The notes beneath the pieces were generated by a model that was not told the origin of the DNA, did no database searches, and saw nothing but the letters and a program-made list of their open reading frames with translations. A stretch of DNA of 48,284 nt from Bordetella parapertussis. GTDB taxonomy: Bacteria; Pseudomonadota; Gammaproteobacteria; Burkholderiales; SG8-41. The first letter of the stretch is position 1. Each line of letters opens with the position of its first letter. Shown piece after piece: positions 6,046-47,324 of this stretch. Location: positions 1 through 48,284 of the forward strand of contig CAMBGJ010000001.1 of the NCBI GenBank assembly GCA_945865805.1, read 5' to 3'. The position numbers were made by a program, and so were the translations under genes.

Positions 6046-6489
6046 TTGGAGCAGTTTTTCGCCACCTTTTTTACCTACGTCCAGAAAAGTCCGCTCAACA
6101 TGGTGTTGTTCGGCCTGGCGCTCACGTCTGCCGGCATGTTGTTGTTTCCGCTGTTCACGCGTGGCATGCGTCCCGGCGCCGAAGTCGGCCCGGCGGAAGC
6201 GGTGACGTTGATTAACCGCAAAGACGCGGTGGTAATCGATGTGCGCGACGAGGGCGAGTTCAACAGCGGCCACATCAACAACGCGCGCCACATCCCCGAA
6301 AAGCAATTGGCGGATCGCATGAAGGAGCTGGAGAAATTCAAGGCCAAGCCGGTGATCGTCAGTTGCGCCATGGGACGCCGCGCGTCGGTTGCGGTGGATG
6401 CCTTAAAGAAGCAGGGCTTTGCCGACGTGGTGGCGTTGCGCGGCGGCATCAGCGCGTGGTCGCAAGCGGGCATGCCGCTGGAAAAATAA
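6046..6489 (+). CDS. membrane-anchored rhodanese-domain sulfurtransferase
   Basis: 147 aa. TTG start is preceded by AGGAG at 6034. N-terminal TM helix, rhodanese fold with active-site loop VSCAMGRRAS. Confidence 0.85.
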   Translation: MEQFFATFFTYVQKSPLNMVLFGLALTSAGMLLFPLFTRGMRPGAEVGPAEAVTLINRKDAVVIDVRDEGEFNSGHINNARHIPEKQLADRMKELEKFKAKPVIVSCAMGRRASVAVDALKKQGFADVVALRGGISAWSQAGMPLEK

Positions 6490-6490
6490 C

Positions 6491-6510
6491 CAATTAAATC
6501 AAAAACTTAT
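6491..6510 (+). repeat. AT-rich box copy 2 (forward; exact IHF-type core AATCAAAAACTTA)
   Basis: CAATTAAATCAAAAACTTAT lies between the rhodanese stop and the grxC ribosome-binding site. Confidence 0.45.
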
Positions 6511-6521
6511 ATAGGAGCATC

Positions 6522-6779
6522 ATGGCTAAAGTCATCATGTATAGCACCGCAGTTTGACCTTACTGCGTAACCGCGGAGCGGTTACTGGCAAGCAAAGGTG
6601 TTACGGAAATCGAAAAGATTTATATCGATAAAGACCCCGCGCGTCGCAGTGAAATGATGGAAAAAACCGGGCGGCGTACCGTGCCGCAAATCTACATCGG
6701 CGACACGCATGTCGGCGGCTACGATGATTTGTCTGCGCTCGATCGCGCGGGCGGGCTCGAACCGCTGCTGGCGAAATAG
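6522..6779 (+). CDS. grxC: glutaredoxin 3 with an in-frame TGA (6555-6557) replacing the first Cys of the CPYC active site; candidate selenoprotein, alternatively a nonsense pseudogene or a base-call error
   Basis: My own translation: MAKVIMYSTAV[TGA]PYCVTAERLLASKGVTEIEKIYIDKDPARRSEMMEKTGRRTVPQIYIGDTHVGGYDDLSALDRAGGLEPLLAK*. It is colinear with Grx3 (TVPQI, GGYDD motifs). AGGAG lies 6 nt upstream of the ATG. It sits in the conserved rhodanese-grxC-secB position and is missing from the ORF track only because of the TGA. Confidence 0.75.
6567..6585 (+). other. RNA hairpin 9 nt downstream of the grxC TGA (candidate bacterial SECIS)
   Basis: GUAACCGC-GGA-GCGGUUAC is a perfect 8-bp stem with an apical loop starting in G. 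The loop begins 17 nt after the UGA. The stem ends use GTA (Val) and TTA (Leu), which are rare codons elsewhere in this GC-rich window. Confidence 0.5.
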
Positions 6780-6812: not shown

Positions 6813-7349
6813 ATGAGCGAACAAGCCCCCGCAACCAATGCAACCAATGCACCGCAAGCCCCGGCGGACATGACGCAGCCGATTTTCAGCATCGAGAAAA
6901 TCTATCTCAAGGACATGTCGCTCGAAGCGCCCGGCACGCCGAAGGCTTTTTTGCAGAATGAACAACCGCAGGTGGATGTGAACGTACACACCGGTGCCAA
7001 CGTGGTCGAGGCCGGTGCGCTGTATGAAGTGGTGCTCACCATCACGGTCACCGCCAAGGCCAAAGATCACACGGTGTTCCTGGTTGAGGTGGCGCAGGCG
7101 GGGCTGTTTCACATCCGCAATCTGCCGCCGCAGGATCTCGATGCCGTGCTTGGCATTTTGTGCCCGACCAATCTGCTGCCCTACGCGCGCGAAGCGGTGT
7201 CCAGTACCATCGGCCGCGCGGGATTCCCGCCAGTGGTGCTGCATCACATGGATTTCAATCATGTGTTCCAGCAGGCGCAACAGCAGCGCGCGGCGCAGGC
7301 CGGGCAGGTTGGAGCCGCACCAGCCGCCGCGCCGTCCAAGGCGAACTGA
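6813..7349 (+). CDS. secB: protein-export chaperone SecB
   Basis: 178 aa with FSIEKIYLKDMSLEAP...VFLVEVAQAGLF...LCPTNLLPYAREAVSS...GFPPVVL, typical of SecB. Confidence 0.95.
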   Translation: MSEQAPATNATNAPQAPADMTQPIFSIEKIYLKDMSLEAPGTPKAFLQNEQPQVDVNVHTGANVVEAGALYEVVLTITVTAKAKDHTVFLVEVAQAGLFHIRNLPPQDLDAVLGILCPTNLLPYAREAVSSTIGRAGFPPVVLHHMDFNHVFQQAQQQRAAQAGQVGAAPAAAPSKAN

Positions 7350-10042: not shown

Positions 10043-10122
10043 GTAGCCTGTAAGTAGCGCAGCGTATTACAGGGTCAACCCCATGTTTTGTCCCGTAATA
10101 CGTAGCGCTACTTACGGGCTAC
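10043..10122. repeat. single-copy long palindrome between convergent genes
   Basis: gtagcctgtaagtagcgcagcgtattacaggg pairs with cccgtaatacgtagcgctacttacgggctac. The right arm overlaps the stop codon of the 10112..11011 gene. Confidence 0.75.
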
Positions 10123-11011
10123 CGTTTTGGACGCGCGCATTTAACGCGTCGACATATTCGTCGCGTATTTGAGGTACAAGTGTCGCGATCGACAATGAGG
10201 CACTTTGAGGGCCTTCTGCAAAAGAGGCAACTTGATAAGGAGCGAATAGTATTTCTATACCTTTGTCCTTGAAGATAAAGTTGTCAAAACAATCCCACTT
10301 CGATGTCCCTTCGTCTATCCAGTCTCGTGTGATTTTCTGGTCGCCTTTTCCCGAGGCTAGAATTGGATACAACGCTTCGCGAACGCGCGACTGAATGAAA
10401 ACAAGCGCTTTCTCCGGTTCTTTGAAAAGTTGCGACAAAGAGTTGATAAGAACAAGAGGTTCTAGCAAAAAGTTAAATGTGAGAAAGTGGTAATTTGAAT
10501 GCACAGCCCCTGCGCCATACCAACTGACAGAATATTGGACGCTAATAATTTTTCCTATCAAGATTGATTCGCCACAATGGGCATCGTAGGTATTTGTACG
10601 GAAAAATTTGTCTTGCTCAAAATTATAGAATTCACTTGCTGGTTCGAGTGTTTGTTGGCGGTGTTGAAAGAGAGTGAGTAAGAGACGTCCTTTGATGTAA
10701 TCTGTAATTTCCGTGATCTTGGGAAATCGCTCCGACCTGAAAGCTAGCCAATCGAATCGCACGTCGTAACCAGGTGCACCGTCCGACGCCTCATGAAATG
10801 TTTGTGATTCCCACACAATTCCTTCATTCTTTTGGATTGCATTTCGTGCTTTGCCAACACGTTGCTGTTGATGGCGAATGGCATCTGCAATTCGCTCGTT
10901 ACAGTTCGGCTCGGATGCTTTGATATGCTGAATTCCTCTTAACTGAGGTGGAATTGGTGCGTCATCTAACAGGATGGGAATAATGTAAATATCGTCAATC
11001 CGCCCTGTCAT
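10112..11011 (-). CDS. AT-rich foreign-looking gene: C-terminal remnant of a TIR domain fused to a DUF3298/RsiV-like domain
   Basis: The N-terminus MTGRIDDIYIIPILLDDAPIPPQLRGIQHIK looks like the last strand/helix of bacterial TIR domains. An in-frame TAA lies immediately upstream of the ATG, and the next gene ends 6 bp away. The central WYGAGAVHSNYHFLTFNFLLEP...LSQLF resembles the DUF3298 'GGAH' core. The region is visibly lower in GC than its flanks. Confidence 0.5.
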   Translation of the reverse strand: MTGRIDDIYIIPILLDDAPIPPQLRGIQHIKASEPNCNERIADAIRHQQQRVGKARNAIQKNEGIVWESQTFHEASDGAPGYDVRFDWLAFRSERFPKITEITDYIKGRLLLTLFQHRQQTLEPASEFYNFEQDKFFRTNTYDAHCGESILIGKIISVQYSVSWYGAGAVHSNYHFLTFNFLLEPLVLINSLSQLFKEPEKALVFIQSRVREALYPILASGKGDQKITRDWIDEGTSKWDCFDNFIFKDKGIEILFAPYQVASFAEGPQSASLSIATLVPQIRDEYVDALNARVQNGSP

Positions 11012-11017
11012 TTACAC

Positions 11018-11971
11018 TTAATCCACACGGATGTTCGCCGCCTTGATCACCCGCGCGTACTTGGTTGAATCCGCTCGCACCAACGCGGCGAATTGTTCGG
11101 GGCGCATCGTTAGCGGCGTCATCGCGTCGTCCGACAATCGTTTTTTGAAGCTGGGGGTATCCAGATGCCGGGCAATATCCGCCGAGATTCTGTCGGCCAC
11201 GGCGTTCGGCGTTGCTGGCGGCGCCAGCATGCCGTACCAGATGCGGATGTCGAACGCGGGCACACCGCTTTCCGCGAAGGTGGGCGTCTGGGGCAAGGCT
11301 TGCAGGCGTTCATCAGAGCCGATGGCGATGGCTTTCAGGCGGCCATTCTTCACGTGTGCGATGGTCGAGATGGGTATCGCAAAATAGAGCTGCACTTCGC
11401 CGCCAATCAGCGCGGTGAGCGTCGGCCCACCGCCTTTATACGGAATGTGCTGCATGCTTACACCCGCGAGCATGTTGAACAGCGCGTTCGCCAGATGCGC
11501 CGGACTGCCGCCGCCCGCCGACGCGTAATTCAATTGCCCCGGACGTGATTTCGCCAGCGCGATGAGTTCCTGCAATGTGCTGGCGGGCACGGCGGGATGC
11601 AACACCAGAAGAAAATCCGTGCTGCCCAGGGTTGCGATGGGCGTGAAGCCCTTGACCGGATCGTACGGCGCGGGAACCAGCAGCGGTGTAATGATGTGGG
11701 TGGGCGTCGCCACCATCAACGTGTAACCATCCGCCGCTGCACGCGCCAGCGTATCGCCGCCGATAAAACCGTTGCCGCCGGGACGGTTGTCGATCACCAC
11801 CTGCTGGCCCCAGCCCTCGGTCAGCTTCTGACCGAGCAGGCGTGCGAGTACATCGCTGCTGCCACCGGGCGCGTTGGGGGTGAAGATGCGCACCGGGCGG
11901 GTGGGGTAAACCGGCTGCGCGTACGCGTGCAGGGCAGTGACCAGCAGCGCGGCGAGCCAGAGCGTGCGCAT
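11018..11971 (-). CDS. Bug/TctC-family tripartite tricarboxylate transporter substrate-binding protein
   Basis: Signal peptide MRTLWLAALLVTALHAYAQ, then PVRIFTPNAPGGSSDVLAR...YASAGGGSPAHL...IPYKGGGP, the Bug family signatures. An alternative GTG start at 11986 overlaps the dapE stop (GTGA). Confidence 0.9.
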   Translation of the reverse strand: MRTLWLAALLVTALHAYAQPVYPTRPVRIFTPNAPGGSSDVLARLLGQKLTEGWGQQVVIDNRPGGNGFIGGDTLARAAADGYTLMVATPTHIITPLLVPAPYDPVKGFTPIATLGSTDFLLVLHPAVPASTLQELIALAKSRPGQLNYASAGGGSPAHLANALFNMLAGVSMQHIPYKGGGPTLTALIGGEVQLYFAIPISTIAHVKNGRLKAIAIGSDERLQALPQTPTFAESGVPAFDIRIWYGMLAPPATPNAVADRISADIARHLDTPSFKKRLSDDAMTPLTMRPEQFAALVRADSTKYARVIKAANIRVD

Positions 11972-11982
11972 GCGGCACCGCT

Positions 11983-13116
11983 TCACTTAACCAACAAATT
12001 CACCAGCACCTGCTTGTAAATCTTTTGCAGTGGCTCGATTTCTTCCACCCCCACGCATTCGTTGAGCTTGTGTATGGTGGCGTTGGTCGGGCCGAACTCC
12101 ACCACTTGCGGGCAGATGTCGGCGATGAAGCGGCCATCCGAGGTGCCGCCGGTGGTGGATAGCTCGGTGTCCACGCCGGTCACGGACTTGATGGCTTTGG
12201 CGATGGCGTCCACCAGATCGCCGCGCGGGGTGAGGAACGGCCGGCCATCGACGCGCCACTCCAAGTCGTAGTGCACGCCGTGTCTGTCGAGGATGTTGAC
12301 CACGCGCGTTTCCAGCGACTCGATGCTGCTTGCGGTTGAGTGGCGAAAGTTGAAACGCACGGTGGCGCTGCCGGGAATCACGTTGTTTGCACCCGTACCC
12401 GAGTTGAAATTGGAAATCTGCCAGGTAGTCGGCGGAAAATATTCGTTGCCGTTGTCCCATTTGGTTTGCGCGAGTTCGGCGATTGCAGAGGCGACTTCGT
12501 GGATGGGATTGCGCGCCATGTCGGGATACGCCACGTGGCCCTGTATGCCTTTCACTGTCAGCACGCCGGTGAATGAGCCGCGGCGGCCGTTCTTGATCAT
12601 GTCGCCGAGCTTTTTCACCGAGGTCGGTTCGCCCACCACGCAGTAATCGAGCTTTTCGCCGCGCGCGGTGAGCGCCTGCACCATGCGCACGGTGCCGTCG
12701 ATGGCAGGGCCTTCTTCGTCGGAGGTGAACATCACCGCCAGCGAGCCGGGGTGATCCGGGTGTTCGTTGACAAAATCGCGGATCGCCAGCACGAAGGCCG
12801 CGAGCGAGGTTTTCATATCCGCCGCACCGCGCCCGTAGAGCCAGCCGTCCCTGATCGTCGGGGTGAACGGGTCACTCGTCCATTGATCGAGCGGGCCGGT
12901 GGGCACCACATCGGTGTGGCCGGCAAAGCACACCAGCGGCCGCGCGGTGCCGCGCCGCGCCCACAGATTGCTGACCCCGCCCATGTCGATTCGCTCGCAG
13001 GTGAAGCCCAGCGGTTCCAACAGGGGAATGAGGATGTCGAGACAGCCTGCATCATCGGGAAACTGCGATTTGCAGCGGATGAGTTGTTGGGTGAGTTCCA
13101 GCGTATTGAGTTCCAT
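11983..13116 (-). CDS. dapE: succinyl-diaminopimelate desuccinylase
   Basis: 377 aa with [16 protein letters not shown]...[11 protein letters not shown]...[16 protein letters not shown]...SDEEG, the M20 DapE pattern. Confidence 0.95.
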
Positions 13117-17358: not shown

Positions 17359-17436
17359 CGATGGTGTCGCTGCATGATTCGGGTGCAGCGGCATGTCCAC
17401 CAGCCGCAAGCGGGTTGGAAGACACCGGAGAAATAT

Positions 17437-18459
17437 ATGTTTAAAAACAAATACTTACCGTTTCTCCGCCACACCATGTTGATATTGGCCTGCGTGCTGT
17501 GGCCAGTTACGCCATTGTGGGCGCAACCCGCCACCACGGCTGCAAGCCCCGCGTGGTTGCCGACCAAAAACGTTGAAATCATCCACGGCTCGGCGCCCGG
17601 TGGCAGCAATGACAAACGTGCGCGTGAGATCGAAAAAGCGTTGGCTGAAACCAAGCTGATCCCGACATCAATGACGGTGGTCAGCAAGCCCGGCGGCGGC
17701 GGCTCGATTTCGATGGCGTATGCCAACACGCATCCCGGCGATGGGCATTATCTGCTACTCGGCGGCTCGACCATGATCAGCAATCACATCATTGGCGCCT
17801 CCAAAATGAATTACACGGATTTCACGCCGATCGCGTCGCTGATGAATGATTACATCGTGTTCGCGGTGAACGCGGATTCGCCGCTTAAAACCGGCAAGGA
17901 TTTGCTTGAGCGTTTGAAAACCAAACCGCAGTCGCTGTCCATCGGCTTTGCCAGCGCGTTCGGCAACAGCCGCCATATCGGCGCGGGCATGCTGATGCGC
18001 GCGGTGGGCGGCAACCCGCGCGATCTGAAGGTGGTGGTGTTCAAGGGTTCCGCCGAGGCGATCAGCGCGCTGCTCGGTGGGCACATCGATGTGGCGATAC
18101 TCGGCGCGATCAATTCGGTGGTGCATCTGGGTGGCGGCAAAATGCGCGTGCTGGCGGCGGCCACGCCACGGCGCTTTGGCGGCGCGCTGGCGCATGTGCC
18201 GACGTGGAAGGAGCTCGGCGTAGATGTAGTATCCGGCAGTTGGGGCGGCGTGTTCGGCCCGCGTAATCTGCCTGCCGCGCAACTGGCGTTTTGGGAAGAA
18301 GCGATGCGGCGCGTATCGCAGAATGCGGGCTGGAAAGCCGATCTGGAAAAAAATTACTGGCTGGATGATTTCGCGGTGGGCGCGCAGTTTCGCAAGGAAC
18401 TCGAAAAGGATTACGCGGATACACGCAAGGTGCTGGTGGATGTGGGGCTGGCGAAATAG
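17437..18459 (+). CDS. Bug/TctC-family substrate-binding protein
   Basis: MFKNKYLPFLRHTMLILACVLWPVTPLWAQ signal peptide, then VEIIHGSAPGGSNDKRAR...KPGGGGSI. GGAG lies upstream of the ATG at 17437. It is a tandem paralogue of the next gene. Confidence 0.9.
   Translation: MFKNKYLPFLRHTMLILACVLWPVTPLWAQPATTAASPAWLPTKNVEIIHGSAPGGSNDKRAREIEKALAETKLIPTSMTVVSKPGGGGSISMAYANTHPGDGHYLLLGGSTMISNHIIGASKMNYTDFTPIASLMNDYIVFAVNADSPLKTGKDLLERLKTKPQSLSIGFASAFGNSRHIGAGMLMRAVGGNPRDLKVVVFKGSAEAISALLGGHIDVAILGAINSVVHLGGGKMRVLAAATPRRFGGALAHVPTWKELGVDVVSGSWGGVFGPRNLPAAQLAFWEEAMRRVSQNAGWKADLEKNYWLDDFAVGAQFRKELEKDYADTRKVLVDVGLAK
17439..17458 (+). repeat. AT-rich box copy 5 (forward; overlaps codons 1-8)
   Basis: GTTTAAAAACAAATACTTAC is read as F-K-N-K-Y-L, a different frame relative to the box than copy 4. 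Confidence 0.6.
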
Positions 18460-18470
18460 GTTTAAAAATA

Positions 18471-19451
18471 ATGATTAAAATCAAATACTTACATATGATG
18501 TCTTTCGCGGCGCTGCTGTTGGCTGGCGCTGCCCACGCACAAAGCTGGACCCCCAGCAAAAACGTCGAGATCGTCGTTGGCTCCGCACCCGGCGGCAGCA
18601 ACGACCGCACCGGGCGCTCGGTGGAACGCTTGTTGAACGATCTGAAGCTCGTGCCGACCTCACTCACCGTTGTCAACAAGCCGGGTGGCGGCGGCAACAT
18701 CATGTTCAGCTATGTCAACGGCCACGCGGGCGACGCGCACTACCTGATGGTGGGCACCACGGCGATGCTGACCAATCACATCGTCGGTTCCGGCAAGCTG
18801 AGCCACGCGGATTTCACGCCTATTGCATCGTTGTTCAACGACTACGTGGTGTTCGCGGTCAACAGCAATTCGCCGAGCAAAACCGGCAAGGATTTGGTCG
18901 AGCGCCTCAAAAAAGACCCGCAGTCGATCCCGCTGGGTTTCGCCACTTCGCTCGGCAGTCACAACCACATTGCCGCCGGACTGCTGATGAAAGCCTTCGG
19001 CGGCAGCGCGCGCGATCTTAAAGCCGTGGCCTTCAAGGGCGCGGCCGAAGGCATCACCGCGCTGATGGGCGGGCACCTTGAGCTCGTGACCACGGCGGCA
19101 GGCAATGTCGCTCCGCACGTGCAAAGCGGGCGGCTGCGCGTAGTGGCCGTATCCGCTGATAAACGCCTGCCCGGCGCGTTCGCCAGCGTGCCAACGTGGA
19201 AAGAGCAAGGGGTGAATCTTGTCTACGGCGGCTGGCGCTCGATCATGGGGCCGAAGGGCCTGACCGCGCCGCAAGTCGCGTATTGGGAAGGCGCGCTGCG
19301 TAAAGCCTCGCAAAGCGCCGAGTGGAAAACCGAACTCGAACGCAACTATTGGTCAGATGATTTCGTCACCAGCGTGCAGTTTCGCAAGGATTTGGAGAAG
19401 GACTACACCGATATGAAGGCGGTGTTGGTGGAGTTGGGGTTGGCGCGATAA
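18471..19451 (+). CDS. Bug/TctC-family substrate-binding protein
   Basis: 326 aa, colinear with the preceding paralogue (VEIVVGSAPGGSNDRTGR...KPGGGGNI...). Confidence 0.9.
   Translation: MIKIKYLHMMSFAALLLAGAAHAQSWTPSKNVEIVVGSAPGGSNDRTGRSVERLLNDLKLVPTSLTVVNKPGGGGNIMFSYVNGHAGDAHYLMVGTTAMLTNHIVGSGKLSHADFTPIASLFNDYVVFAVNSNSPSKTGKDLVERLKKDPQSIPLGFATSLGSHNHIAAGLLMKAFGGSARDLKAVAFKGAAEGITALMGGHLELVTTAAGNVAPHVQSGRLRVVAVSADKRLPGAFASVPTWKEQGVNLVYGGWRSIMGPKGLTAPQVAYWEGALRKASQSAEWKTELERNYWSDDFVTSVQFRKDLEKDYTDMKAVLVELGLAR
18473..18492 (+). repeat. AT-rich box copy 6 (forward; overlaps codons 1-8; exact IHF-type core AATCAAATACTTA)
   Basis: GATTAAAATCAAATACTTAC is read as I-K-I-K-Y-L. Confidence 0.6.
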
Positions 19452-19457
19452 CACCTG

Positions 19458-19534
19458 TTTAACCACGGAACACACAGAATACGCAGAAAATGCTCGCGGT
19501 GTTTTCCGCGTATTCTGTGTGTTCCGTGGTTAAA
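19458..19534. repeat. family A long palindrome (TTTAACCACGGAACAC subtype)
   Basis: tttaaccacggaacacacagaatacgc is the perfect reverse complement (26+ nt) of gcgtattctgtgtgttccgtggttaaa. It starts 7 nt after the Bug stop. Confidence 0.9.
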
Positions 19535-19574
19535 TTGATCTGAATTTGATAACACAGCAACCGAAACTGACCCC

Positions 19575-20429
19575 ATGAAAACCATCCTCATCACCGGCGC
19601 TGCCGGACGCATCGGCAGCTTTATGCGTGCCGAACTCGCGGGCAAATACCAACTGCGCCTGTCGGACATCCAGCCGGTCAAAAAACTCCAGCCCGGCGAA
19701 ACGTTCGTGCGCGCGGATATCGCCAACATGAAACACGCGCTGCGCATTACCAAGGGCGTCGATGCGGTGGTGCACTTCGGCGGGCAGTCGGGCGAGCACA
19801 CCTGGGAACAAATACTCAACGCCAACATCATCGGTTTTCGCAACACGCTGGAGGCCGCGCGGGTGAACGGCGTGAAACGTTTTCTGGTGGCGACTTCGAA
19901 TCACGCGGTAGGGTTTTATCCGGTGACGCAAACCGTTGATCACCGCGTCTACATCAAGCCCGACAGCCGCTACGGCGTGTCCAAGGTGTTCAACGAAGCG
20001 TTGGCCAGCCTTTACGCCGACCGCTACGGCATGGAAATGTTCTGCATGCGCATCGGCAACGTCAACAGCGAACCCATCGACCGGCGGCGGCTGGCGATCT
20101 GGATCAGCCCGCGTGACATGGCGCAACTGGTGACGATCGGCATCGAAAGGCCGAAACTGAAATTTGAAATCGTCTACGGCATCTCGGACAACAAAGGCAC
20201 GTGGTTTGATAACAGCAACGCCAAGCGGCTGGGCTACAGGCCCAAGGATCGCAGCGCGCCGTACGCAAAAGAAATTACCCAACGTGAAGGCCCGCCCGGC
20301 AAAACACCGGCGGACATTTTTCAGGGCGGCGGACATTGCATGTCGGAAGGCGGCACGCGCAGCCGCCTGGCGGGAGAGGCAGCGGCACCGGCACCGGCCA
20401 AACGCAAGCGCGCGCGTTCGCGTGCCTAG
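19575..20429 (+). CDS. udh: uronate dehydrogenase-like NAD-dependent epimerase/dehydratase family protein
   Basis: MKTILITGAAGRIGSFMR...VVHFGG...NIIG..N.LEAAR...SNH..G.YP...YGVSK...RIG...WFDNS....LGY.PKD....FQGG is colinear, from memory, with Agrobacterium-type Udh. It carries an extra basic Ala/Arg-rich tail of about 25 aa. Confidence 0.75.
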   Translation: MKTILITGAAGRIGSFMRAELAGKYQLRLSDIQPVKKLQPGETFVRADIANMKHALRITKGVDAVVHFGGQSGEHTWEQILNANIIGFRNTLEAARVNGVKRFLVATSNHAVGFYPVTQTVDHRVYIKPDSRYGVSKVFNEALASLYADRYGMEMFCMRIGNVNSEPIDRRRLAIWISPRDMAQLVTIGIERPKLKFEIVYGISDNKGTWFDNSNAKRLGYRPKDRSAPYAKEITQREGPPGKTPADIFQGGGHCMSEGGTRSRLAGEAAAPAPAKRKRARSRA

Positions 20430-20481
20430 CGCGGCGTTAGGGGCTGGCGACTCTGGGTTCGCGGTTGTCCCGACAGGTGTA

Positions 20482-20544
20482 GGGCGGGAGTTATCCCGCC
20501 ATTTCGGTGCTTTGTGGCAGGATAACTCCCGCCCAACTTTTTTT
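20482..20544 (+). terminator. probable intrinsic terminator after udh
   Basis: gggcgggagttatcc (20482-20496) is the perfect reverse complement of ggataactcccgccc (20520-20534). This is followed by aac and a run of 7 T. The loop is long (23 nt) but partly self-pairing. Confidence 0.5.
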
Positions 20545-20593
20545 CCGCTATCGCGATGGGTATTGGCGCCGTGCCTGCGAGCCGGGCACTGAC

Positions 20594-21526
20594 ATGGACG
20601 CTACCAACTGGGTCTGGATACCCCTATCCATTTTTGCCGCGTTGATGCAGGCCGTGCGCACGGCCGCGCAAAAGCAACTGAATCAACGCATGTCCACGAT
20701 GGGCACGACGTATGTGCGCTCTTTGTTTGGTTTGCCGGTGTTGCTGGTGTTCCTAGGTGCCGTGACCCTCTATACCGGCCTTGGCGCGCCTGAATTCAAA
20801 CCGGCGTTCGTGTTGCACACGGCTGGCGGCGCGGCGGCGCAGGTGCTGGCGACCGCGTTGCTGATTTACCTGTTTCGCTTGAAGAATTTCGCAGTCGGCA
20901 CCATGCTCACCAAGACCGACCTGATTCTGACCGCAGTGGTCGGCACGGTGCTATTCACCGAACAGATCACCCCATTCGGCTGGGTGGCGATCCTGGTGGT
21001 GATGGGCGGCGTGACGCTGATGCTGCTGGGCAAAACGGGCACCGGCGTATTCAAAACGCGCGGCGAAGCGGTGTCACATCTGTTGACGGGGCGTGCGACA
21101 CAGGTGGCGTTGGCGTGCGCATTGTTGTTTGCATTGTCCTATCTGTTTTTGCGCGCGGCGACATTGGAACTGGGCGAGCAGAATCACTTTCTGTGGCGCT
21201 CGGGCTGGACCGTGGTGCTGGCCACCACCCTGCAGATCGTGTGCCTGGGCCTGTGGCTGGCGGTCAAGGAACCGGGGGTGTTCCGGCAAATGTGGCCGGT
21301 GCGCGGCATCGCCAGCTTTATCGGCCTGACCAGCGCGCTGGGTTCCATCGGCTGGTACTCGGCGTTCGCGCTGCAGAATGCGTCCTATGTGCGCGCCGTC
21401 GGTCAGATCGAAGCAGTGTTTACGCTGACCATTTCATGGCTGTATTTCCGCGAGAAAATTACCCGGCTGGAACTGGCGGGTATTGCCGCCACCGTGGCCG
21501 GGGTGCTGATGTTCCGGCTGGTTTGA
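20594..21526 (+). CDS. DMT-superfamily (EamA-like) permease
   Basis: About 310 aa, roughly ten hydrophobic helices, two-fold internal repeat. ATG at 20594 (MDATNWVWIPLSIFAALMQ...). Confidence 0.7.
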   Translation: MDATNWVWIPLSIFAALMQAVRTAAQKQLNQRMSTMGTTYVRSLFGLPVLLVFLGAVTLYTGLGAPEFKPAFVLHTAGGAAAQVLATALLIYLFRLKNFAVGTMLTKTDLILTAVVGTVLFTEQITPFGWVAILVVMGGVTLMLLGKTGTGVFKTRGEAVSHLLTGRATQVALACALLFALSYLFLRAATLELGEQNHFLWRSGWTVVLATTLQIVCLGLWLAVKEPGVFRQMWPVRGIASFIGLTSALGSIGWYSAFALQNASYVRAVGQIEAVFTLTISWLYFREKITRLELAGIAATVAGVLMFRLV

Positions 21527-21707
21527 GTAGGGGCGGCTTCACGCGTACGCGCCCCGCAGCGCCAGCAACAGAACCGCCCAGCGCCCGCAGCACATAGCCG
21601 ACCATTAGCGCTGGCTAAACGCCTGCGTTGCTCAATGGCGTTTCTTCACGATGCCCGAGGCGCTTGACGACCAGCCCATCACAGAAGTCCATCCCTAAAA
21701 CCAAACC

Positions 21708-22610
21708 TTACGGATACATCGCCCAGCCGCGTCGATCCGTCTGCGCTTTGAAGAAATGCCCATTGGTGCTGGTGACAAACACGGTGGACATATCCGGCCC
21801 GCCGAAGCAGACATTGGTGGGGCGGTTGGCGGCGACGGGATGCGTTTCCAAAACGCGACCCTTGGGTGAGAACACGTAGAGCATGGGGCCAGGGCCGCTG
21901 ACTTCCCAGCCGGCGGTGGCGATGATGTTGCCTTCAGCATCGAGGCACATGCCGTCAATGCCGCGATGCAGGCCGCGTGCGTCTTCGCCCCAGGTGAACA
22001 GCACATCGAATTTGCCGAGGCTGCCGTCGTCACGGATCGGGTACGCGCGCAACTCGCGCGGGATGCCGTGCGTGTAGCTGCTTTCGGCGACATACAGCGT
22101 GCGGTTATCGCGTGACACCAGAATGCCGTTGGGCTGGGTGGTGTCGAAGGTGGCGCGCGTGACCAAATAGCTGCCGTCGGCTTGCGGCGAGGCGCACAGC
22201 ACCGAGCGGTGATCGAGTTCTTCTTTTTCGGTTTTGTCCCAGTTACCATCGTTCACCGGGTTGGTGAACCAGATGCGGCCGCGATAATCGACGGCCAGAT
22301 CATTGGGCGTACTCAATTTCTTGCCGTCGAGCCGGTCGGCGATCACGGTGTTTTTGCCGTCGGCATCAAAGCGCACGATGCTGCGACCGCCGGAACAGCA
22401 GCCGTAGAGCTTGCCATGATTGTCGAAGCACAGGCCGTTGGTGCGGTTGGTGCCTTCGCGCCACACGCTGACGACGTTGGTTTTCAGGTCATAGCGCAGG
22501 ATGCGGTTTTTGCGGATGTGGGTGAAGAGTATTTCTTCGCCCGTCCACACCGGGCCCTCGGTGATGAGTTCGCCTTCGGGCTTCATGATGAGTTCAAAAT
22601 TCCACGACAT
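21708..22610 (-). CDS. SMP-30/gluconolactonase/LRE-family lactonase
   Basis: MSWNFELIMKPEGELITEGPVW...TNGLCFD...PNDLAVD...PNGI..S.D..TLYVAES...DGMCLD, a six-bladed propeller lactonase pattern. The start is trimmed to the ATG at 22610. Confidence 0.85.
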   Translation of the reverse strand: MSWNFELIMKPEGELITEGPVWTGEEILFTHIRKNRILRYDLKTNVVSVWREGTNRTNGLCFDNHGKLYGCCSGGRSIVRFDADGKNTVIADRLDGKKLSTPNDLAVDYRGRIWFTNPVNDGNWDKTEKEELDHRSVLCASPQADGSYLVTRATFDTTQPNGILVSRDNRTLYVAESSYTHGIPRELRAYPIRDDGSLGKFDVLFTWGEDARGLHRGIDGMCLDAEGNIIATAGWEVSGPGPMLYVFSPKGRVLETHPVAANRPTNVCFGGPDMSTVFVTSTNGHFFKAQTDRRGWAMYP

Positions 22611-22624
22611 GTTGATTCCTTGGG

Positions 22625-23446
22625 TTAAGCAGACGGTGCAGGGGGTTGGGGCGAACCTCTTTTCTTGATTACATAAACTATCGCGGCCGGCCAAAACAGC
22701 AGCAACAGCACTACCAGCAGTACCATGTTGATCTGCCCAGCGGCAGCGACGGGTGAGGCCGCAGGCGTTTGCCGCAGCGAATCCAGTACCTCGCGCCGCA
22801 ACTGATTCAGGTGCTCCGCCGGAACACCGTTGCCGCAATACTGACAGCGCGGCGGGTTGGATAAATCGAGCGAAACCTTCTGGTTGATCTTGTGCCCGCA
22901 GTGGTTGCAGTCGGCGAATACCAGAAACTCGCTTTGCAGGCGGCTGTTGATGATCTTGTCGCTGCGGCTTTCGTAGGCGTAGGCAGACTGCTGCTGCGCG
23001 TTGATGTCTTTCAGATGCTTGAGGATGAATTCGCGCGGTAGTCCCAGTGCCACCGTGAGGCTTGCCACATTTGCATCGCCGGCGTGTTCGAGCGCGTTCC
23101 AGATGGCGATGATCTTTTTTTCGCGGGAACGGAAGCCATAACCAACGATCAGCAGGATCAAGCCGTTGGCGATTATGATGGTGCGCACGAGCGGAAAGCC
23201 ACGTTCGATTGCCTCGACCTCAAAGCGCGCGCCCTTCTCCTGGCGTATCTGCTCCAGCGTGCGCCCATTTTTGTTGTCAAAGGTGTACTGGGTATTGTTG
23301 CCGGTTTTTTCTTTGATGACGACTTCGTTCCAGCGGAACGGATCCAGCGTCACCGACAGCACCCCCGCAATCAACAGCAGCCAGCCTATGGCAATGAAGT
23401 AATTATCGATCTTGTAAATGTCTTTCGGCGTCATTAGCTTGCCCAC
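22625..23446 (-). CDS. uncharacterised membrane protein with a cytoplasmic zinc ribbon
   Basis: 273 aa, three predicted TM segments (YFIAIGWLLLIAGVLSV; IIIANGLILLIVGYGF; MVLLVVLLLLFWPAAIVYVI). CNHCGH-x17-CQYCG forms a Cys4 ribbon. It is visibly lower in GC than its neighbours and lies 100 bp downstream of the kinase gene on the same strand. Confidence 0.6.
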   Translation of the reverse strand: MGKLMTPKDIYKIDNYFIAIGWLLLIAGVLSVTLDPFRWNEVVIKEKTGNNTQYTFDNKNGRTLEQIRQEKGARFEVEAIERGFPLVRTIIIANGLILLIVGYGFRSREKKIIAIWNALEHAGDANVASLTVALGLPREFILKHLKDINAQQQSAYAYESRSDKIINSRLQSEFLVFADCNHCGHKINQKVSLDLSNPPRCQYCGNGVPAEHLNQLRREVLDSLRQTPAASPVAAAGQINMVLLVVLLLLFWPAAIVYVIKKRGSPQPPAPSA

Positions 23447-23545: not shown

Positions 23546-25156
23546 CTATTTGAATTTGGGCGGCGGTTTTCCGCCCGGCCCATCCGGCGGCGGTCCCAAC
23601 GTTCTGAGCGACAGAAATTCCTGTATCGAAAGGCGGCCATCCCTGTCGGCATCCAGGCGGACGAAATCACGCTCGATAGGTCCCCGCCCCCGCACTTCGT
23701 CCGCCGATAAATGGCCGTCGCCATTGGCGTCCATGTGACGAAAGTCCCGTAACAGCTTCTGTTCAAAGGGGTCGCCACCCGTGGGCGGCTCGCCGCGCGG
23801 CATATGCGCATGCGCTGGCGGCGCAGGGCGCGCGGTGGCCGGTGCGGCAGGCACCGCTGTCGCGCCCTTGTTGCGTTCTTCTTCGAGCTTGCGCAGCGCC
23901 TCGGCACGCTCGGCGGCGATCTTGTCGCGATCACCCGCGTTGCCGGCCATCATTTGCGCCGCGCGTTCTTCGACACTGCGGGTGTCGAGCGCCTGTTGCG
24001 CGGCGGCGAGTTTGGCGGCTTCGGTGCGCGCGGTGGCTTCCTTGGCGAGCTTGGCATCGCGCTGGCCGGTGTACCACGCGCGGCCGCCGAACGGTGCCGC
24101 CAACACCACCGCACCGATCACCACCCAGCGCCACGGCGATGACGGCTCGGGGTCAACATCATAAGGCGAGCGCACGGGGGTGCGGCGTACTTGTGTCGCC
24201 GCCGCCGTGCTGGTTATCGTGGGCGCGGCTGCGCCTGTCGCGCTACTTGCCACCCGTACGCTGGCGGGCGACGGCGCTTTGCCTTCCAGCGCGCGCTTCC
24301 AGATTTCCACCGTGGCGGGGCGCTGTTTTTCGTCCAGCGACAGCGCCCATTGCATGGCATTCAGCGCGGGCTCGCTGACGCGGCCCCGAAGCTGCGCAAG
24401 TCTGGCGGGCACGGTATCGCCTTTCAGGCGGCTGACGGCGTCCGGCGGATTTTCGTTGGTGTAGGCGCGATACAGCACGCCCGCCATCGCGTAAATGTCC
24501 GACCACGGCCCCTGGTTGCCCTGGCCGGAGTATTGCTCGAGCGGCGCGTAACCCGGCGTGAGCACGGCGGTAAGGCTTTTGGTGGAGCCGTTGACCGCCT
24601 GCCGCGCCGCGCCGAAATCGAGCAGCACCGGGCTTTGATTGGTGCGGATAAAAATATTCGCCGGCTTGATATCACGATGCAAGAAACCGGTTTCGTGCAC
24701 CGCCTGCAAGCCATCGAGCAGCGGAAAAATAATTTCCTTCAACCGGGCTTCGCTCGGCAGCGGCTGATCCTTGAGTATCTGGTTGAAGGATTCGCCATCT
24801 TCGTAATCCATCACCATGTAGCCGGTGGCGTTGGCCTCGAAATAGCGGTTCACGCGCACGATGTGCGGGTGGCTGAATTTCGCCAGCGTGCGCGCTTCCT
24901 GAATGAAGCGATCAAGGCCCCACTTGTAGCTCTCGTCCGCCTGGGTGTTGATGGCGACTACGCCACCGTCCGGCTCGCGCAGCGCGAGATCAGCGGGGAA
25001 AAACTCCTTGATCGCGACGCGCTTGTCGAGATGGGTATCGGTGCACAGATACGTCATAACGAAGCCGCCCACGCCCAGAACGGATTCCAGGCGGTACTCC
25101 TGCAACATCGTGCCGAGCTTGAGCGCGTTGCGGTAGGTGGTGTGGGGGGTAGTCAC
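23546..25156 (-). CDS. Hanks-type Ser/Thr protein kinase with one TM helix and a C-terminal EF-hand pair
   Basis: Kinase motifs GVGGFVMTY, VAIKEF, HRDIKPANIF, DFG, PGYAPLE. TM segment WRWVVIGAVVLAAPFGG (~aa 342-358), then a coiled-coil/Pro-rich region. Two perfect 12-residue EF loops, DANGDGHLSADE and DADRDGRLSIQE, map to DNA 23618-23731. Confidence 0.9.
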   Translation of the reverse strand: MTTPHTTYRNALKLGTMLQEYRLESVLGVGGFVMTYLCTDTHLDKRVAIKEFFPADLALREPDGGVVAINTQADESYKWGLDRFIQEARTLAKFSHPHIVRVNRYFEANATGYMVMDYEDGESFNQILKDQPLPSEARLKEIIFPLLDGLQAVHETGFLHRDIKPANIFIRTNQSPVLLDFGAARQAVNGSTKSLTAVLTPGYAPLEQYSGQGNQGPWSDIYAMAGVLYRAYTNENPPDAVSRLKGDTVPARLAQLRGRVSEPALNAMQWALSLDEKQRPATVEIWKRALEGKAPSPASVRVASSATGAAAPTITSTAAATQVRRTPVRSPYDVDPEPSSPWRWVVIGAVVLAAPFGGRAWYTGQRDAKLAKEATARTEAAKLAAAQQALDTRSVEERAAQMMAGNAGDRDKIAAERAEALRKLEEERNKGATAVPAAPATARPAPPAHAHMPRGEPPTGGDPFEQKLLRDFRHMDANGDGHLSADEVRGRGPIERDFVRLDADRDGRLSIQEFLSLRTLGPPPDGPGGKPPPKFK

Positions 25157-25386: not shown

Positions 25387-26667
25387 TTACAGATTCACTT
25401 CCAGCGTATACAACCCGCCGCTGAAGCGATCGGCCGCGTACACAATGTTGCGGTCATCGACATACACATCATTCATCTGAATCGCGCCTTTGGGCGACAG
25501 TGGCGGCGCGCCGGGGACGAAATACGCGGCCTCGCGTGGCTGATACTGATTTGAAATGTCGTAAACGCGGATGCCTGCGTTGAAACACGAGGTGAAAATA
25601 ATATTCTCCGAGCGAAACGCGTGTTTCGCCGGATAGTTTTCGTAGACGTTGTGCGCACCGAAGCGCCCGCCGCGCTTGCCGAAGGCTTCCACGGGTGGCA
25701 GCGGCAAGGTCGAAATCGTCACCAGATTGGTTTCGTCACTCATGTCGGCGATCCAGTTGAACTTGGGCCAATCCACGCCATCGTCCTTGTTGCATTCGTC
25801 GGCCAGTACCATCAGGCCGCGCCCCAGCAGCGGCATCGCGGTGTGCGACATGCCGTTGAACGGCGGCGAAATCTTCAAGCGCGAAATTTCCTTCGGGTGC
25901 GCCTTGTCGCCGATATCCAGGATCACCACGCCGCCGTCGATGTAGCCCATGTAAGCGCGGTCGGGCCGCTCAGGATAGACGCTGATGTTGTGCGGGCGGT
26001 AGCCGCCGTCAAACTTGGGGTGGCGTGGCACCGGCGGTTTGGCGTCGCCTACCTTCGTGCCCGGATACCACCAGCGGCCCGCTTCGACCGGCTTCGAGGG
26101 ATTGCGTACGTCAACGATGCGGTAAATCTGATGATCTTTGGGATTACGCGGCTGATGATCCGGCGCGCCGCAGCTTAAATGCACAAACTCGCCGTCGACA
26201 AACCAGCAGCAATGCGCGCCCAGCGAATGTGGGCCGGAGGCGTCAAAGTGCGAAATGAGTTTGGGCTTTTCCGGCGTGCTGATGTCAAACAGGTCGAAGC
26301 CTGCCGGCGTGCGCCCGGCCGACTGCATGAGGTTGTTGGGGTCGTTGGGGTTGCCCTTGCCGCCGCGCACCTGATAACACACCACCATCATGTCGCCGAC
26401 GACTTCCAGCGAATTGGAGCGCACTTCGCCATGCGGCAGATCAGTCTGCACCAACACCTTGGGTTTGCGCGGATCGGTGACATCCACACCGGTGAAGTTT
26501 TTGGGTGCCGACTCATGCGCGAGCCACAACACGCGCCGCCCATCGTGCGTCATCTGCATGGTGCAGCCCTCGCCGATGCCGCCGAAGCCGTCCAGCTCGT
26601 TCTGCGCCAGCAGTGTCATGTTCAGTGCCAGTGTGCGCGAGGCCTGTGATGCGGGGTTGAGTGCCAT
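25387..26667 (-). CDS. LVIVD-repeat-like beta-propeller protein (function unknown)
   Basis: 426 aa. Repeated units of the form hydrophobic-x-[LV]-x-D-[IV]-[ST]-x-P-x-x-P-K (VDVTDPRKPK, FDISTPEKPK, VDVRNPSKPV, LDIGDKAHPK, YDISNQYQPR). Confidence 0.6.
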   Translation of the reverse strand: MALNPASQASRTLALNMTLLAQNELDGFGGIGEGCTMQMTHDGRRVLWLAHESAPKNFTGVDVTDPRKPKVLVQTDLPHGEVRSNSLEVVGDMMVVCYQVRGGKGNPNDPNNLMQSAGRTPAGFDLFDISTPEKPKLISHFDASGPHSLGAHCCWFVDGEFVHLSCGAPDHQPRNPKDHQIYRIVDVRNPSKPVEAGRWWYPGTKVGDAKPPVPRHPKFDGGYRPHNISVYPERPDRAYMGYIDGGVVILDIGDKAHPKEISRLKISPPFNGMSHTAMPLLGRGLMVLADECNKDDGVDWPKFNWIADMSDETNLVTISTLPLPPVEAFGKRGGRFGAHNVYENYPAKHAFRSENIIFTSCFNAGIRVYDISNQYQPREAAYFVPGAPPLSPKGAIQMNDVYVDDRNIVYAADRFSGGLYTLEVNL

Positions 26668-26679
26668 ACCGTGTTCTCC

Positions 26680-27648
26680 CTATTTGATTAAACCCATTTG
26701 TGTCATGATGGTTTTTGCCTGTGCGTACTCGGCCTGCATCATCTGACGTGTTTGTTCCGCGTTTTTAAACACCGTTTCGCCCTGCACACGCTCGGCAGCG
26801 GTGCGAAACTCGTGGCTGGCGGCGACCTGGTACATCACCGCCTCCCAGTAGGCGATCTGCGCGGGTGTCACACCCTTTGGTGCAAGCACGGCGCGCCAGG
26901 TTTCGCTGACTGCGCCGCGGTAGCCGAGTTCGGCCCAGGTGGGCGCGGCACTGAACGCACCGGTAAGCCGCCGCGAGCCGGTAACCGCGAGCAGGCGCAA
27001 CTGGCCGCTTTCCACTTGCGATAAGAAGCCGACGGCGGAAGCCACCGCCACGTCGAGGTGTCCGCCCAACAGCCCCGTGAGCTGCTTGTTGCTTTCGAGT
27101 ACCACCAATTTCAGTGCGCGCACATCCACACCGGCAGCGTGCAGCATGCGCCCGGCGGCCAGGCGCGTTTGGATGGTGTTGATCGCGATGGTGAGGGAAT
27201 CAGGCTTGGCCTTCAACGCATCAGCGAAATCTTTGCCGCTTTTCAAGGGCGAGTCGGCACGCACCGCCACCACATAGGCTTCGGTCATGATGGTCGCGAT
27301 GGGGGCGAAATCGGTGTAGGTGACCGACAGACGGCCCGCAAGATGATTGGAGAGCAGCACCGGCGAAGCGAGACTCAACACGTGCGGGTCACCCTTACGT
27401 TGGGCGAGATGCGTATAAGCGAGCGCGTGTTCGCCGCTCGAGCGATTGACCACCGCGCTCGACACGGGCAAGAGCCGCATCTCCTGCCAGCGGCGTTGCA
27501 CGATGCGCGCGGTGGAATCCATCGCACCGCCGGGCGCATTGGGTGCGATCAGTTCCACGTGACGGCTGGGCGTCCAGCCTTGCGCGTGTACTACCACTGT
27601 GGCCACACACAGTGCGAGCACAGCGAACAGGCGCATCGCCGCTGTCAT
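26680..27648 (-). CDS. Bug/TctC-family substrate-binding protein
   Basis: MTAAMRLFAVLALCVATVVVHAQGWTPSRHVELIAPNAPGGAMD.... The ATG at 27648 overlaps the stop of the upstream paralogue (ATGA). The ORF-track extension to 28041 runs out of frame through the coding sequence of the upstream paralogue (27645..28601). Confidence 0.9.
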   Translation of the reverse strand: MTAAMRLFAVLALCVATVVVHAQGWTPSRHVELIAPNAPGGAMDSTARIVQRRWQEMRLLPVSSAVVNRSSGEHALAYTHLAQRKGDPHVLSLASPVLLSNHLAGRLSVTYTDFAPIATIMTEAYVVAVRADSPLKSGKDFADALKAKPDSLTIAINTIQTRLAAGRMLHAAGVDVRALKLVVLESNKQLTGLLGGHLDVAVASAVGFLSQVESGQLRLLAVTGSRRLTGAFSAAPTWAELGYRGAVSETWRAVLAPKGVTPAQIAYWEAVMYQVAASHEFRTAAERVQGETVFKNAEQTRQMMQAEYAQAKTIMTQMGLIK

Positions 27649-45187: not shown

Positions 45188-45304
45188 GACCCGTCGAATA
45201 AATACCCGTAACGCTTTAATAATTAACGGAAAATTGGAATCCGGAGAAATCCGGCCTGCGGGGGAATTCGCTTGCAATTATCCCACAAATCCTTTAGCGT
45301 AAGC

Positions 45305-45400
45305 GTACACGTTAGGGGTCCCCATGCCGGTGAAATGGGGTGAGAAAGACCCTCGGAACCTGATGCGGGTAATGCCGCCGTAGGGAAGCGTGGTGCGGTC
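45305..45400 (+). promoter_or_regulatory. TPP (THI-box) riboswitch controlling thiC
   Basis: aggggtcccc...ggggtGAGAaagACCCtcgGAACCTGATgcgGGTAATGCCgcCGTAGGGAAgc carries the conserved (C)UGAGA, ACCC, AACCUGAU and UAAUGCC...GUAGGGAA blocks. It lies about 55 nt upstream of the thiC ATG. Confidence 0.85.
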
Positions 45401-45443
45401 GCCCCAAGCGTTACCGCCCACTGCTCCCCAGCCGTTTTTTTAA

Positions 45444-47324
<1,881 letters not shown>

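Follow-up and report, generated by a model that had tools for sequence, protein, structure and literature searches.

A grxC gene with UGA at the catalytic cysteine codon: a predicted selenocysteine-containing glutaredoxin 3 in a freshwater betaproteobacterial clade

The stretch of DNA analysed here (contig CAMBGJ010000001.1, hereafter the window) is a whole contig of 48,284 nt, and the gene in question is grxC, encoding glutaredoxin 3 (Grx3), in which an in-frame TGA takes the place of the catalytic Cys codon. Through comparison with related loci, we consider it highly probable that this grxC encodes a functional selenoprotein, a Grx3 in which the nucleophilic first Cys of the C-P-Y-C motif is replaced by selenocysteine (Sec). 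Two results carry this reading: substitution patterns in 24 related sequences demonstrate that the UGA is translated in frame, and synonymous codon choice in the same sequences demonstrates that the RNA just 3′ of the UGA is under a selection specific to the UGA forms. We further infer that the inserted residue is Sec, that the hairpin lying directly downstream is the Sec insertion sequence (SECIS), and that SelB recognises this hairpin.

The grxC gene and its reading frame

The grxC frame runs from an ATG to a TAG over 85 codons (Table 1) and is free of lesions apart from the single in-frame TGA at codon 12. Its translation from 6522 starts with MAKVIMYSTAV*PYCVTAERLL, continues through TVPQIYIGDTHVGGYDDL and ends in LLAK*; the complete frame (6522–6779) reads MAKVIMYSTAV*PYCVTAERLLASKGVTEIEKIYIDKDPARRSEMMEKTGRRTVPQIYIGDTHVGGYDDLSALDRAGGLEPLLAK*, where the asterisk denotes a stop codon. 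When Cys was put for the UGA, the product scored 113.6 bits against the glutaredoxin 3 model TIGR02181 (cutoff 90). The match spans residues 4–83 of 85 and profile positions 1–80 of 80, and the equivalog cutoff was passed at full length. In alignments with E. coli Grx3 (PDB 1FOV) and with the 120 homologues listed, the UGA codon corresponds to the first Cys of CPYC. The gene order rhodanese–grxC–secB–SH3–gpsA is common to the window and the Cys-type loci L045–L054, and the window gene is the orthologue of the housekeeping grxC.

The initial annotation of the window had placed a full-length Grx3 gene in the interval from the rhodanese gene to secB and had noted TGA as the codon of the first Cys in C-P-Y-C; both the translation and TIGR02181 agree with it. 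The kept AGGAG ribosome-binding site and the absence of a second lesion, which it also reported, were read directly from the sequence. TGA serves as an ordinary stop codon in 12 of the 34 window genes; therefore the genetic code is standard and no genome-wide reassignment has taken place.

Occurrence of the TGA in independent assemblies and related species

Through exact look-up of the SecB protein, we fetched ten independent assemblies, one of them a metagenome-assembled genome (MAG) from NCBI. The grxC gene was located by anchor in eight of them, and the TGA was identical in all eight. Gene callers in all sources reported only a C-terminal open reading frame (ORF) of 41 residues (6654–6779). 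This 41-residue fragment is present in 143 sample blocks of a collection of 15 billion proteins, where it is called 'glutaredoxin 3' if named at all, and the window is a contig of the same collection. The full-length protein with X at position 12 was absent from that collection by exact look-up, and no full-length clade member was found among the best 120 homologues listed from a database of 5.8 billion clusters.

An error of sequencing or assembly that turned TGC or TGT into TGA has in its favour only the prior that single-base errors occur, and we give it next to no probability. The same base is found in independent assemblies from different samples, in NCBI MAGs and in 24 species-level sequences. 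A miscalled TGA was ruled out by the agreement of the assemblies together with the 143 sample blocks.

We scanned one genome per species, covering 185,579 species, with the DNA pattern TGA-CCN-TWY-TGY, a gap, and TVPQ[IV]. The scan revealed 34 loci, of which 23 are full-length Grx3 frames with TGA at the catalytic Cys. Twenty of these 23 form one betaproteobacterial group of MAGs, labelled as Betaproteobacteria, Burkholderiales, Nitrosomonadales or, wrongly, 'Bordetella parapertussis'; the record names suggest an origin in lakes, glacier-fed streams and groundwater. L025, L034, L036, L041 and L044, freshwater MAGs under the title 'Bordetella parapertussis', carry the clade locus and are evidently mislabelled. 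The remaining three frames come from MAGs assigned to Alphaproteobacteria (L037), to 'Streptomycetaceae' (L038, apparently a wrong label) and to Ca. Binatia (L042).

A metagenome scan for the motif MMEKTGRRTVPQI gave at least 120 loci, including at least three further TGA forms (L060, L127 and L133). The 100 usable Cys forms among the metagenome loci listed were taken as the Cys-type comparison set. In the main clade, the TGA and the full frame are kept in 24 species-level sequences. DNA identity was 77–97% among the 21 clade sequences first compared, and the SecB proteins of the clade are 67–94% identical to that of the window.

Purifying selection on both sides of the TGA

The dN/dS and dS values were calculated by the Nei-Gojobori method over all pairs of the 24 clade sequences. 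We found dN/dS of 0.03 in codons 2–11 (dS 0.89), 0.14 in codons 25–44 (dS 0.89) and 0.05 in codons 45–85 (dS 0.63). The ratio is low on both sides of the TGA, also in codons 25–44, which precede the internal Met, and this indicates that the gene is translated as one protein.

These values bear directly on the possibility that grxC is a pseudogene, or that only the 41-residue C-terminal ORF (6654–6779) is made, as the gene callers would have it. We regard this as extremely unlikely. The full frame is kept without a second lesion in 24 diverged sequences, selection is strong in the 11 codons before the TGA and still evident in codons 25–44, and a 41-residue fragment, with strand beta-1 and the active site missing, cannot be a glutaredoxin. 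Both a pseudogene and a 41-residue product were rejected, being excluded by the frame conservation and by the purifying selection in codons 2–44. The earlier view that the gene does not look like an old pseudogene is borne out by the 24 relatives, with dN/dS of 0.03 upstream and 0.05–0.14 downstream of the TGA.

Codon constraint after the UGA

In the 24 clade sequences, dS falls to 0.18–0.21 in codons 13–24 of grxC, which is 3–4-fold below the rest of the gene. Codons 16–20 (GTA, xCC, GCG, GAG and CGG) make up the five-codon window with the lowest synonymous entropy in grxC, with an entropy sum of 0.41 bits, where the mean per codon is 0.70 bits (p ~1e-4 by comparison with randomly drawn sets of five degenerate codons). 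Of the 24 sequences, 22 have CTA or TTA as codon 21, and wherever codon 23 encodes Ala (23 sequences) it is GCA.

The 100 Cys forms, where they have the same amino acids, choose these codons freely. None of their 30 Val codons at position 16 is GTA, Leu21 is YTA in 8 of 93, and GCG at Ala18 and CGG at Arg20 occur in 21% and 31% of Cys-type homologues, respectively. In the 34 window genes, GTA accounts for 6.9% of the Val codons, CGG for 14.5% of the Arg codons, and TTA and CTA for 4.8% and 3.1% of the Leu codons, respectively; the stem is thus built of rare codons, in line with the earlier remark that GTA and TTA are rare in the window. The frozen codons 16–20 in the Sec forms, compared with free choice in the 100 Cys forms, indicate a UGA-linked function of the hairpin region, and this is the strongest evidence for the proposed reading. 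The initial annotation had argued for selection on RNA structure rather than on codons; it is upheld in that about 35 nt after the UGA are synonymously constrained, and only in the TGA forms. The co-occurrence of the TGA with a constrained downstream region, for which an orthologue alignment had been proposed as a check, extends across the 24 clade sequences.

The codons flanking the UGA are also fixed. Codon 11 before the UGA is GTT with a synonymous entropy of 0.0 in the 24 Sec forms, compared with 1.42 bits in the Cys forms, and the base after the UGA is always C (of the Pro codon) in the clade. The invariant GTT and C suggest selection on the codon context for recoding. In E. coli, UGA followed by C is a weak stop context, the leakiest one.

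The SECIS-like hairpin and an alternative fold

The candidate SECIS is a perfect hairpin of 8 bp (6567–6585), which begins nine nt after the UGA and can be prolonged by a lower stem of 3 bp. ViennaRNA predicted both the hairpin and the UGC/GCA extension with its 2-nt bulge, as had been proposed by eye, with pair probabilities of 0.98–1.0 for the window hairpin. The pairs of the lower stem are intact in 18–19 of 19 sequences. Bacterial SECIS (bSECIS) elements are expected to have a loop of 3–9 nt, an upper stem of 4–16 bp, a distance of 16–37 nt from UGA to loop and an energy of at most −7.5 kcal/mol, with G in the first two loop positions, usually as G[G/U] (PMC13188914). The window hairpin, with its GGA loop, 8 bp, 17-nt spacing and −10.3 kcal/mol (−13.5 kcal/mol with the lower stem), falls within all four constraints, so the earlier match to the SECIS model, based on a loop 17 nt after the UGA that starts with G, holds against the published values. 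The 17-nt spacing and the GG start of the loop are found in all 24 clade sequences. Perfect hairpins of at least 8 bp are present at about 12 distinct places on the plus strand of the window, roughly the random expectation in simulated sequence. The chance of such a hairpin with its loop 16–37 nt after a given site is about 0.005, and the local folding z-score is modest (−1.8 to −2.2).

A second hairpin, CCGU.CUGCG-UAUC-CGCGG.GCGG at 6558–6581, can form from the first base after the UGA. This alternative fold is 97% paired across the clade, with zero double changes. In the window itself it is the less stable of the two (−7.6 kcal/mol compared with −13.5 kcal/mol for the 6567–6585 hairpin with its lower stem). 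It might compete or switch with the SECIS-like hairpin, or it might be incidental.

Several observations weigh against Sec insertion directed by the 6567–6585 hairpin. A U.C or A.C mismatch replaces the fourth pair in 17 of the 24 clade sequences, whose hairpin thus consists of 4 bp, the mismatch and 3 bp. This majority type alone has −6.0 to −7.4 kcal/mol depending on the flanks and −9.2 kcal/mol with the lower stem, and reaches the bSECIS energy limit only when the lower stem is counted. In isolated RNA of the majority type (Pro CCG, Ser UCC), the alternative fold is favoured, with −12.4 compared with −9.2 kcal/mol. The loose bSECIS filter was also passed by 16 of 107 Cys forms (15%), and therefore the filter alone proves little. 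Across the clade, 93% of the pair cells are paired in the 6567–6585 hairpin, but 6 of its 11 pairs are invariant, a region too invariable to prove the fold, and the single two-sided pair change (A-U to G-C, in L036 and L133) is no better than in shuffles. No SECIS family of Rfam was found in a gathering scan of the window or in 6500–6660 up to E 10, so the covariance-model check suggested earlier gave no support to the element; the miss counts for little, as SECIS elements of bacteria vary widely and are poorly represented. ARAGORN found no tRNA gene in the window and 26 related loci, and tblastn with E. coli queries found no match to SelA or SelB in 1.13 Mb of the window and related loci; both negatives hold for these loci.

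Considering these points, the gene might encode Sec while the 6567–6585 hairpin is no functional SECIS and results mainly from the need to encode V-[TSA]-A-E-R-L-L in a GC-rich gene, in which case the alternative fold or a primary-sequence motif would be the true signal. We judge this unlikely. It agrees with the hairpins that Cys-type relatives also fold around the same GGAG, with the well-paired alternative fold, stabler in the majority type, and with the lack of significant covariation for the 6567–6585 hairpin. However, judging from the usual ribosome footprint, the alternative fold would lie within the ribosome, and be melted there, once the UGA occupies the A site. Its loop lies 10 nt after the UGA with no G among its first two bases, outside the bSECIS constraints. 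It also leaves unexplained the frozen rare Leu codon YUA and the GCA of codon 23, both of which pair only in the 6567–6585 hairpin, and the coordinated codon change in L036 and L133 (GUA/xCC/CUA to GUG/GCC/CUG) keeps all 8 pairs of that hairpin. Because of the ribosome position, the loop geometry and these YUA, GCA and L036/L133 changes, the 6567–6585 hairpin is favoured as the candidate SECIS.

The proposed mechanism and the identity of the inserted residue

In the proposed mechanism, when UGA-12 is in the ribosomal A site, the mRNA just 3′ of the ribosome would fold as the 6567–6585 hairpin. SelB-GTP-Sec-tRNA(Sec) would bind the apical part of the hairpin and deliver Sec in competition with RF2, and the product would be a Grx3 of 85 residues with the active site U-P-Y-C. 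As a nucleophile in thiol-disulfide exchange and deglutathionylation, its selenolate would be superior. The Sec-decoding trait is common in Betaproteobacteria, among other groups (PMC1794560), and by analogy the Sec machinery is plausible in a betaproteobacterial background. We found no selenium-related genes among the 30 window ORFs by NCBIfam annotation, and when the window was scanned for further in-frame TGAs that might be read through in a redox-like context, grxC stayed the only convincing case.

The UGA might also be recoded to a residue other than Sec, either to Cys by a dedicated tRNA with UCA anticodon and a SelB-like factor, or through low-level read-through by near-cognate tRNA-Trp or tRNA-Cys. 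Cys insertion by a UCA-anticodon tRNA with a SelB-like factor has been proposed for some Deltaproteobacteria. The dN/dS values support translation through the UGA and are silent on the identity of the residue, and the C after the UGA gives the leaky context mentioned above. Still, the characterised thiol oxidoreductases with UGA at the catalytic Cys and a downstream hairpin all contain Sec. With Trp in place of the nucleophile the enzyme would be inactive, yet purifying selection acts strongly on the entire protein, and simple recoding to Cys would have no advantage over the TGC codon, to which the clade can and does revert. We consider recoding to another residue very unlikely, and we see an equally slim chance that the canonical selA, selB, selC and selD are lacking and that the hairpin drives another UGA recoding, for example to Cys via a non-canonical tRNA and factor. 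Sec remains the preferred identity of residue 12.

Cys-type relatives and origin of the UGA form

The nearest relatives of the window protein are Cys-type betaproteobacterial Grx3 proteins, 80–88% identical among the best 120 matches and encoded in the rhodanese–grxC–secB–SH3–gpsA context. Most Cys-type homologues have unrelated codons at positions 16–22. The Cys-type L045 has GUGGCUGC-GGA-GCGGCUAC, a hairpin of 8 bp (G.U pairs included) at the same site, and the Cys-type L046 and L047 retain parts of the hairpin.

A neighbour-joining tree was built from concatenated rhodanese and SecB (307 columns, 200 bootstraps), with L046 left out as its contig is too short. The Sec clade was monophyletic in 200 of 200 bootstraps with L045 and L047 in, and in 0 of 200 with both out; L036 was basal in this tree. 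In the Cys-type clade members the codons have drifted (GTA to GTG or ATC, xCC to GCT, CTA to CTG, and GCA to GCC or GTG). L045 and L047 are nested in the Sec clade with drifted hairpin codons, and therefore look like Sec-to-Cys revertants. The simplest history, as far as the tree and codons suggest, would be that Cys gave way to Sec once, at the base of the freshwater betaproteobacterial clade, and that Cys returned at least twice, with the hairpin decaying thereafter. Some hairpin may predate the UGA, and the SECIS may have been built on the pairing-prone A-E-R-L-L in a GC-rich gene.

The initial annotation had reasoned that its RNA-structure argument depended on relatives with TGC not carrying the same hairpin. 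This came out mixed: L045 does fold an 8-bp hairpin and L046 and L047 keep parts of it, but the codons of L045 and L047 differ, both nest in the Sec clade, and the 100 broader Cys forms do not share the codons.

Three TGA frames stand outside the main clade. The TGA-Grx3 of L038 (CAZMBS010000126.1) has the hairpin GGCGGAGC-GGUU-GCUUCGCU, with a spacing of 22 nt and −11.6 kcal/mol. Although labelled 'uncultured Streptomycetaceae', L038 has a proteobacterial-type rhodanese–grxC–secB locus and groups with the Cys-type betaproteobacterial L048 and L053. Its taxon label looks wrong, and its TGA, in a single sequence, may represent a second, independent Cys-to-Sec event. In L042 (Ca. Binatia, UPFC) we found a hairpin of 8 bp with the loop GUC, a spacing of 20 nt and −7.5 kcal/mol. 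L038 and L042 thus each have a hairpin of their own at comparable spacing, with G first in the loop. L037 (Alphaproteobacteria, UPYC) was tried as further support and rejected: its hairpin is not acceptable (−1.1 kcal/mol), the gene could be a pseudogene or the product of an error, and it was not counted.

Features of the grxC locus and other features of the window

The features of the grxC locus are collected in Table 1. The upstream rhodanese-domain gene has Cys in its active site and is not a selenoprotein here.

Table 1. Features of the grxC locus (positions in the window)
Feature	Position	Strand	Basis or remark
Rhodanese-domain gene, conserved upstream neighbour	6046..6489	+	Same neighbour at Cys-type loci
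Ribosome-binding site AGGAG	6513..6517	+	4 nt ahead of the grxC ATG; read from sequence
grxC, glutaredoxin 3, predicted active site U-P-Y-C	6522..6779	+	Translation, TIGR02181 score, dN/dS on both sides of the TGA
Val codon GTT directly 5′ of the UGA	6552..6554	+	Invariant in Sec forms; putative codon-context function
UGA, proposed Sec codon	6555..6557	+	Aligns with the nucleophilic first Cys of CPYC; TGA in 24 main-clade sequences
Candidate SECIS with lower 3-bp stem (UGC 6564–6566 with GCA 6588–6590, 2-nt bulge 6586–6587)	6564..6590	+	Minimum free energy and centroid structures
Candidate SECIS, upper hairpin GUAACCGC-GGA-GCGGUUAC	6567..6585	+	8 bp, 3-nt loop, loop 17 nt after the UGA
secB, conserved downstream neighbour	6813..7349	+	PF02556; used in phylogeny

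The assemblies with identical SecB diverge downstream of about 10.1 kb (window about 10100–13100, compared with L001–L006). Past this point, the window, L007 and L008 encode a DUF3298 protein of 299 aa, followed by TctC and DapE. A TIR_2+DUF3298 protein of 386 aa is found in L001, L002, L004 and L006, and a DUF3298 protein of 326 aa without the TIR domain in L003 and L005, in both cases followed by a SpoU methylase and the biotin operon. This divergence is a strain-level rearrangement or a variable region beside the TIR-domain gene.

A TPP riboswitch (RF00059, 69.6 bits) is located at 45304–45403 on the plus strand, just upstream of an ORF of 623 aa (45453–47324), which is presumably a thiamine biosynthesis gene. 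On the minus strand, an ORF of 536 aa (23546–25156) resembles Ser/Thr protein kinases, with partial matches to PknB-type and defence-associated kinases, all below the cutoffs. Several of the ORFs around it (17374–23446 and 25387–28041) have no NCBIfam match.

Implications for annotation and selenium use

The gene is a new and unannotated predicted Sec-containing glutaredoxin (Sec-Grx) in a housekeeping grxC locus, and both the family and the mechanism are already known. The grxC of the clade is systematically mis-annotated: only the 41-residue fragment is on record, so the genomes of the clade appear to lack Grx3. Sec occurs very rarely in the glutaredoxin family, and the gene would encode one such form. 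By its record titles, the clade has a wide distribution in lakes, glacier-fed streams and groundwater, and a Sec form in the housekeeping locus hints at a selenium requirement for basic thiol-disulfide metabolism in such waters. A bolder reading, to which we give a slim chance, is that the only Grx3 of an abundant and cosmopolitan clade would be obligately selenium-dependent, which would make selenium a growth-limiting micronutrient for core thiol redox metabolism there. The clade would also offer a natural series, in which Sec was gained once, was kept for long (SecB identity down to 67%) and was lost again at least twice, leaving hairpins that visibly decay.

Comparison with known selenoproteins and SECIS elements

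Sec-Grx (PF00462, UxxC) is an established and experimentally verified family of bacterial selenoproteins, in which Sec was reported to raise the catalytic efficiency (PMC13188914). It was described in 'a limited number' of species, namely Geobacter sulfurreducens, Alkaliphilus/Clostridium oremlandii and Moorella thermoacetica (PMC1794560), and the Clostridium protein has been verified experimentally (PMC13188914, PMC1794560). GOS metagenome data contained 2 Sec and 1,952 Cys sequences of Grx (PMC2398784). The earlier statement that Sec-containing Grx-like proteins were reported in some anaerobes agrees with this literature (PMC1794560, PMC13188914). Its comment that a Sec form of the housekeeping grxC is unusual is fair, but the case is not extreme, Sec-Grx being a known family.

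Like the known Sec-Grx, the window protein is a small dithiol glutaredoxin with Sec predicted at the first position of CxxC and with abundant Cys-type homologues, and its gene has an in-frame UGA with a hairpin directly downstream. The known hosts are anaerobic Deltaproteobacteria and Clostridia, whereas the gene described here belongs to an uncultured freshwater betaproteobacterial clade and sits in a rhodanese–grxC–secB locus. The window protein scored 86.5 bits against E. coli Grx3 (1FOV), its best solved relative, and 57.7 bits against PDB 4TR0/4TR1, which we take to be the C. oremlandii Grx. Since its nearest relatives are Cys-type betaproteobacterial Grx3 proteins and 1FOV ranks above 4TR0/4TR1, an independent Cys-to-Sec conversion is the most likely origin, and the sequence relationships do not point to common descent with the Geobacter and Clostridium Sec-Grx.

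With E. coli Grx3 (GrxC; 1FOV, 3GRX; TIGR02181) the window protein shares its length, the position of CPYC, TVPQI and GGxDD. It differs in that the catalytic Cys codon is UGA and a constrained hairpin comes next.

The SECIS elements of E. coli fdhF and fdnG are likewise hairpins inside the coding region, directly 3′ of the UGA, whose small apical loop begins with G-G. The fdhF loop lies about 18 nt after the UGA, nearly the geometry of the window with its 17 nt. The window loop is GGA instead of GGUC and has no bulged U, most clade members have a 1x1 mismatch below the 4-bp upper stem, and the binding of SelB is putative.

In a survey of 2006, FdhA was the only selenoprotein family of Sec-decoding Betaproteobacteria (PMC1794560), and Sec-Grx3, if true, would be the second one relative to that survey. 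The betaproteobacterial FdhA resembles the predicted Sec-Grx3 in being a selenoprotein of the same class, and differs from it in belonging to another protein family.

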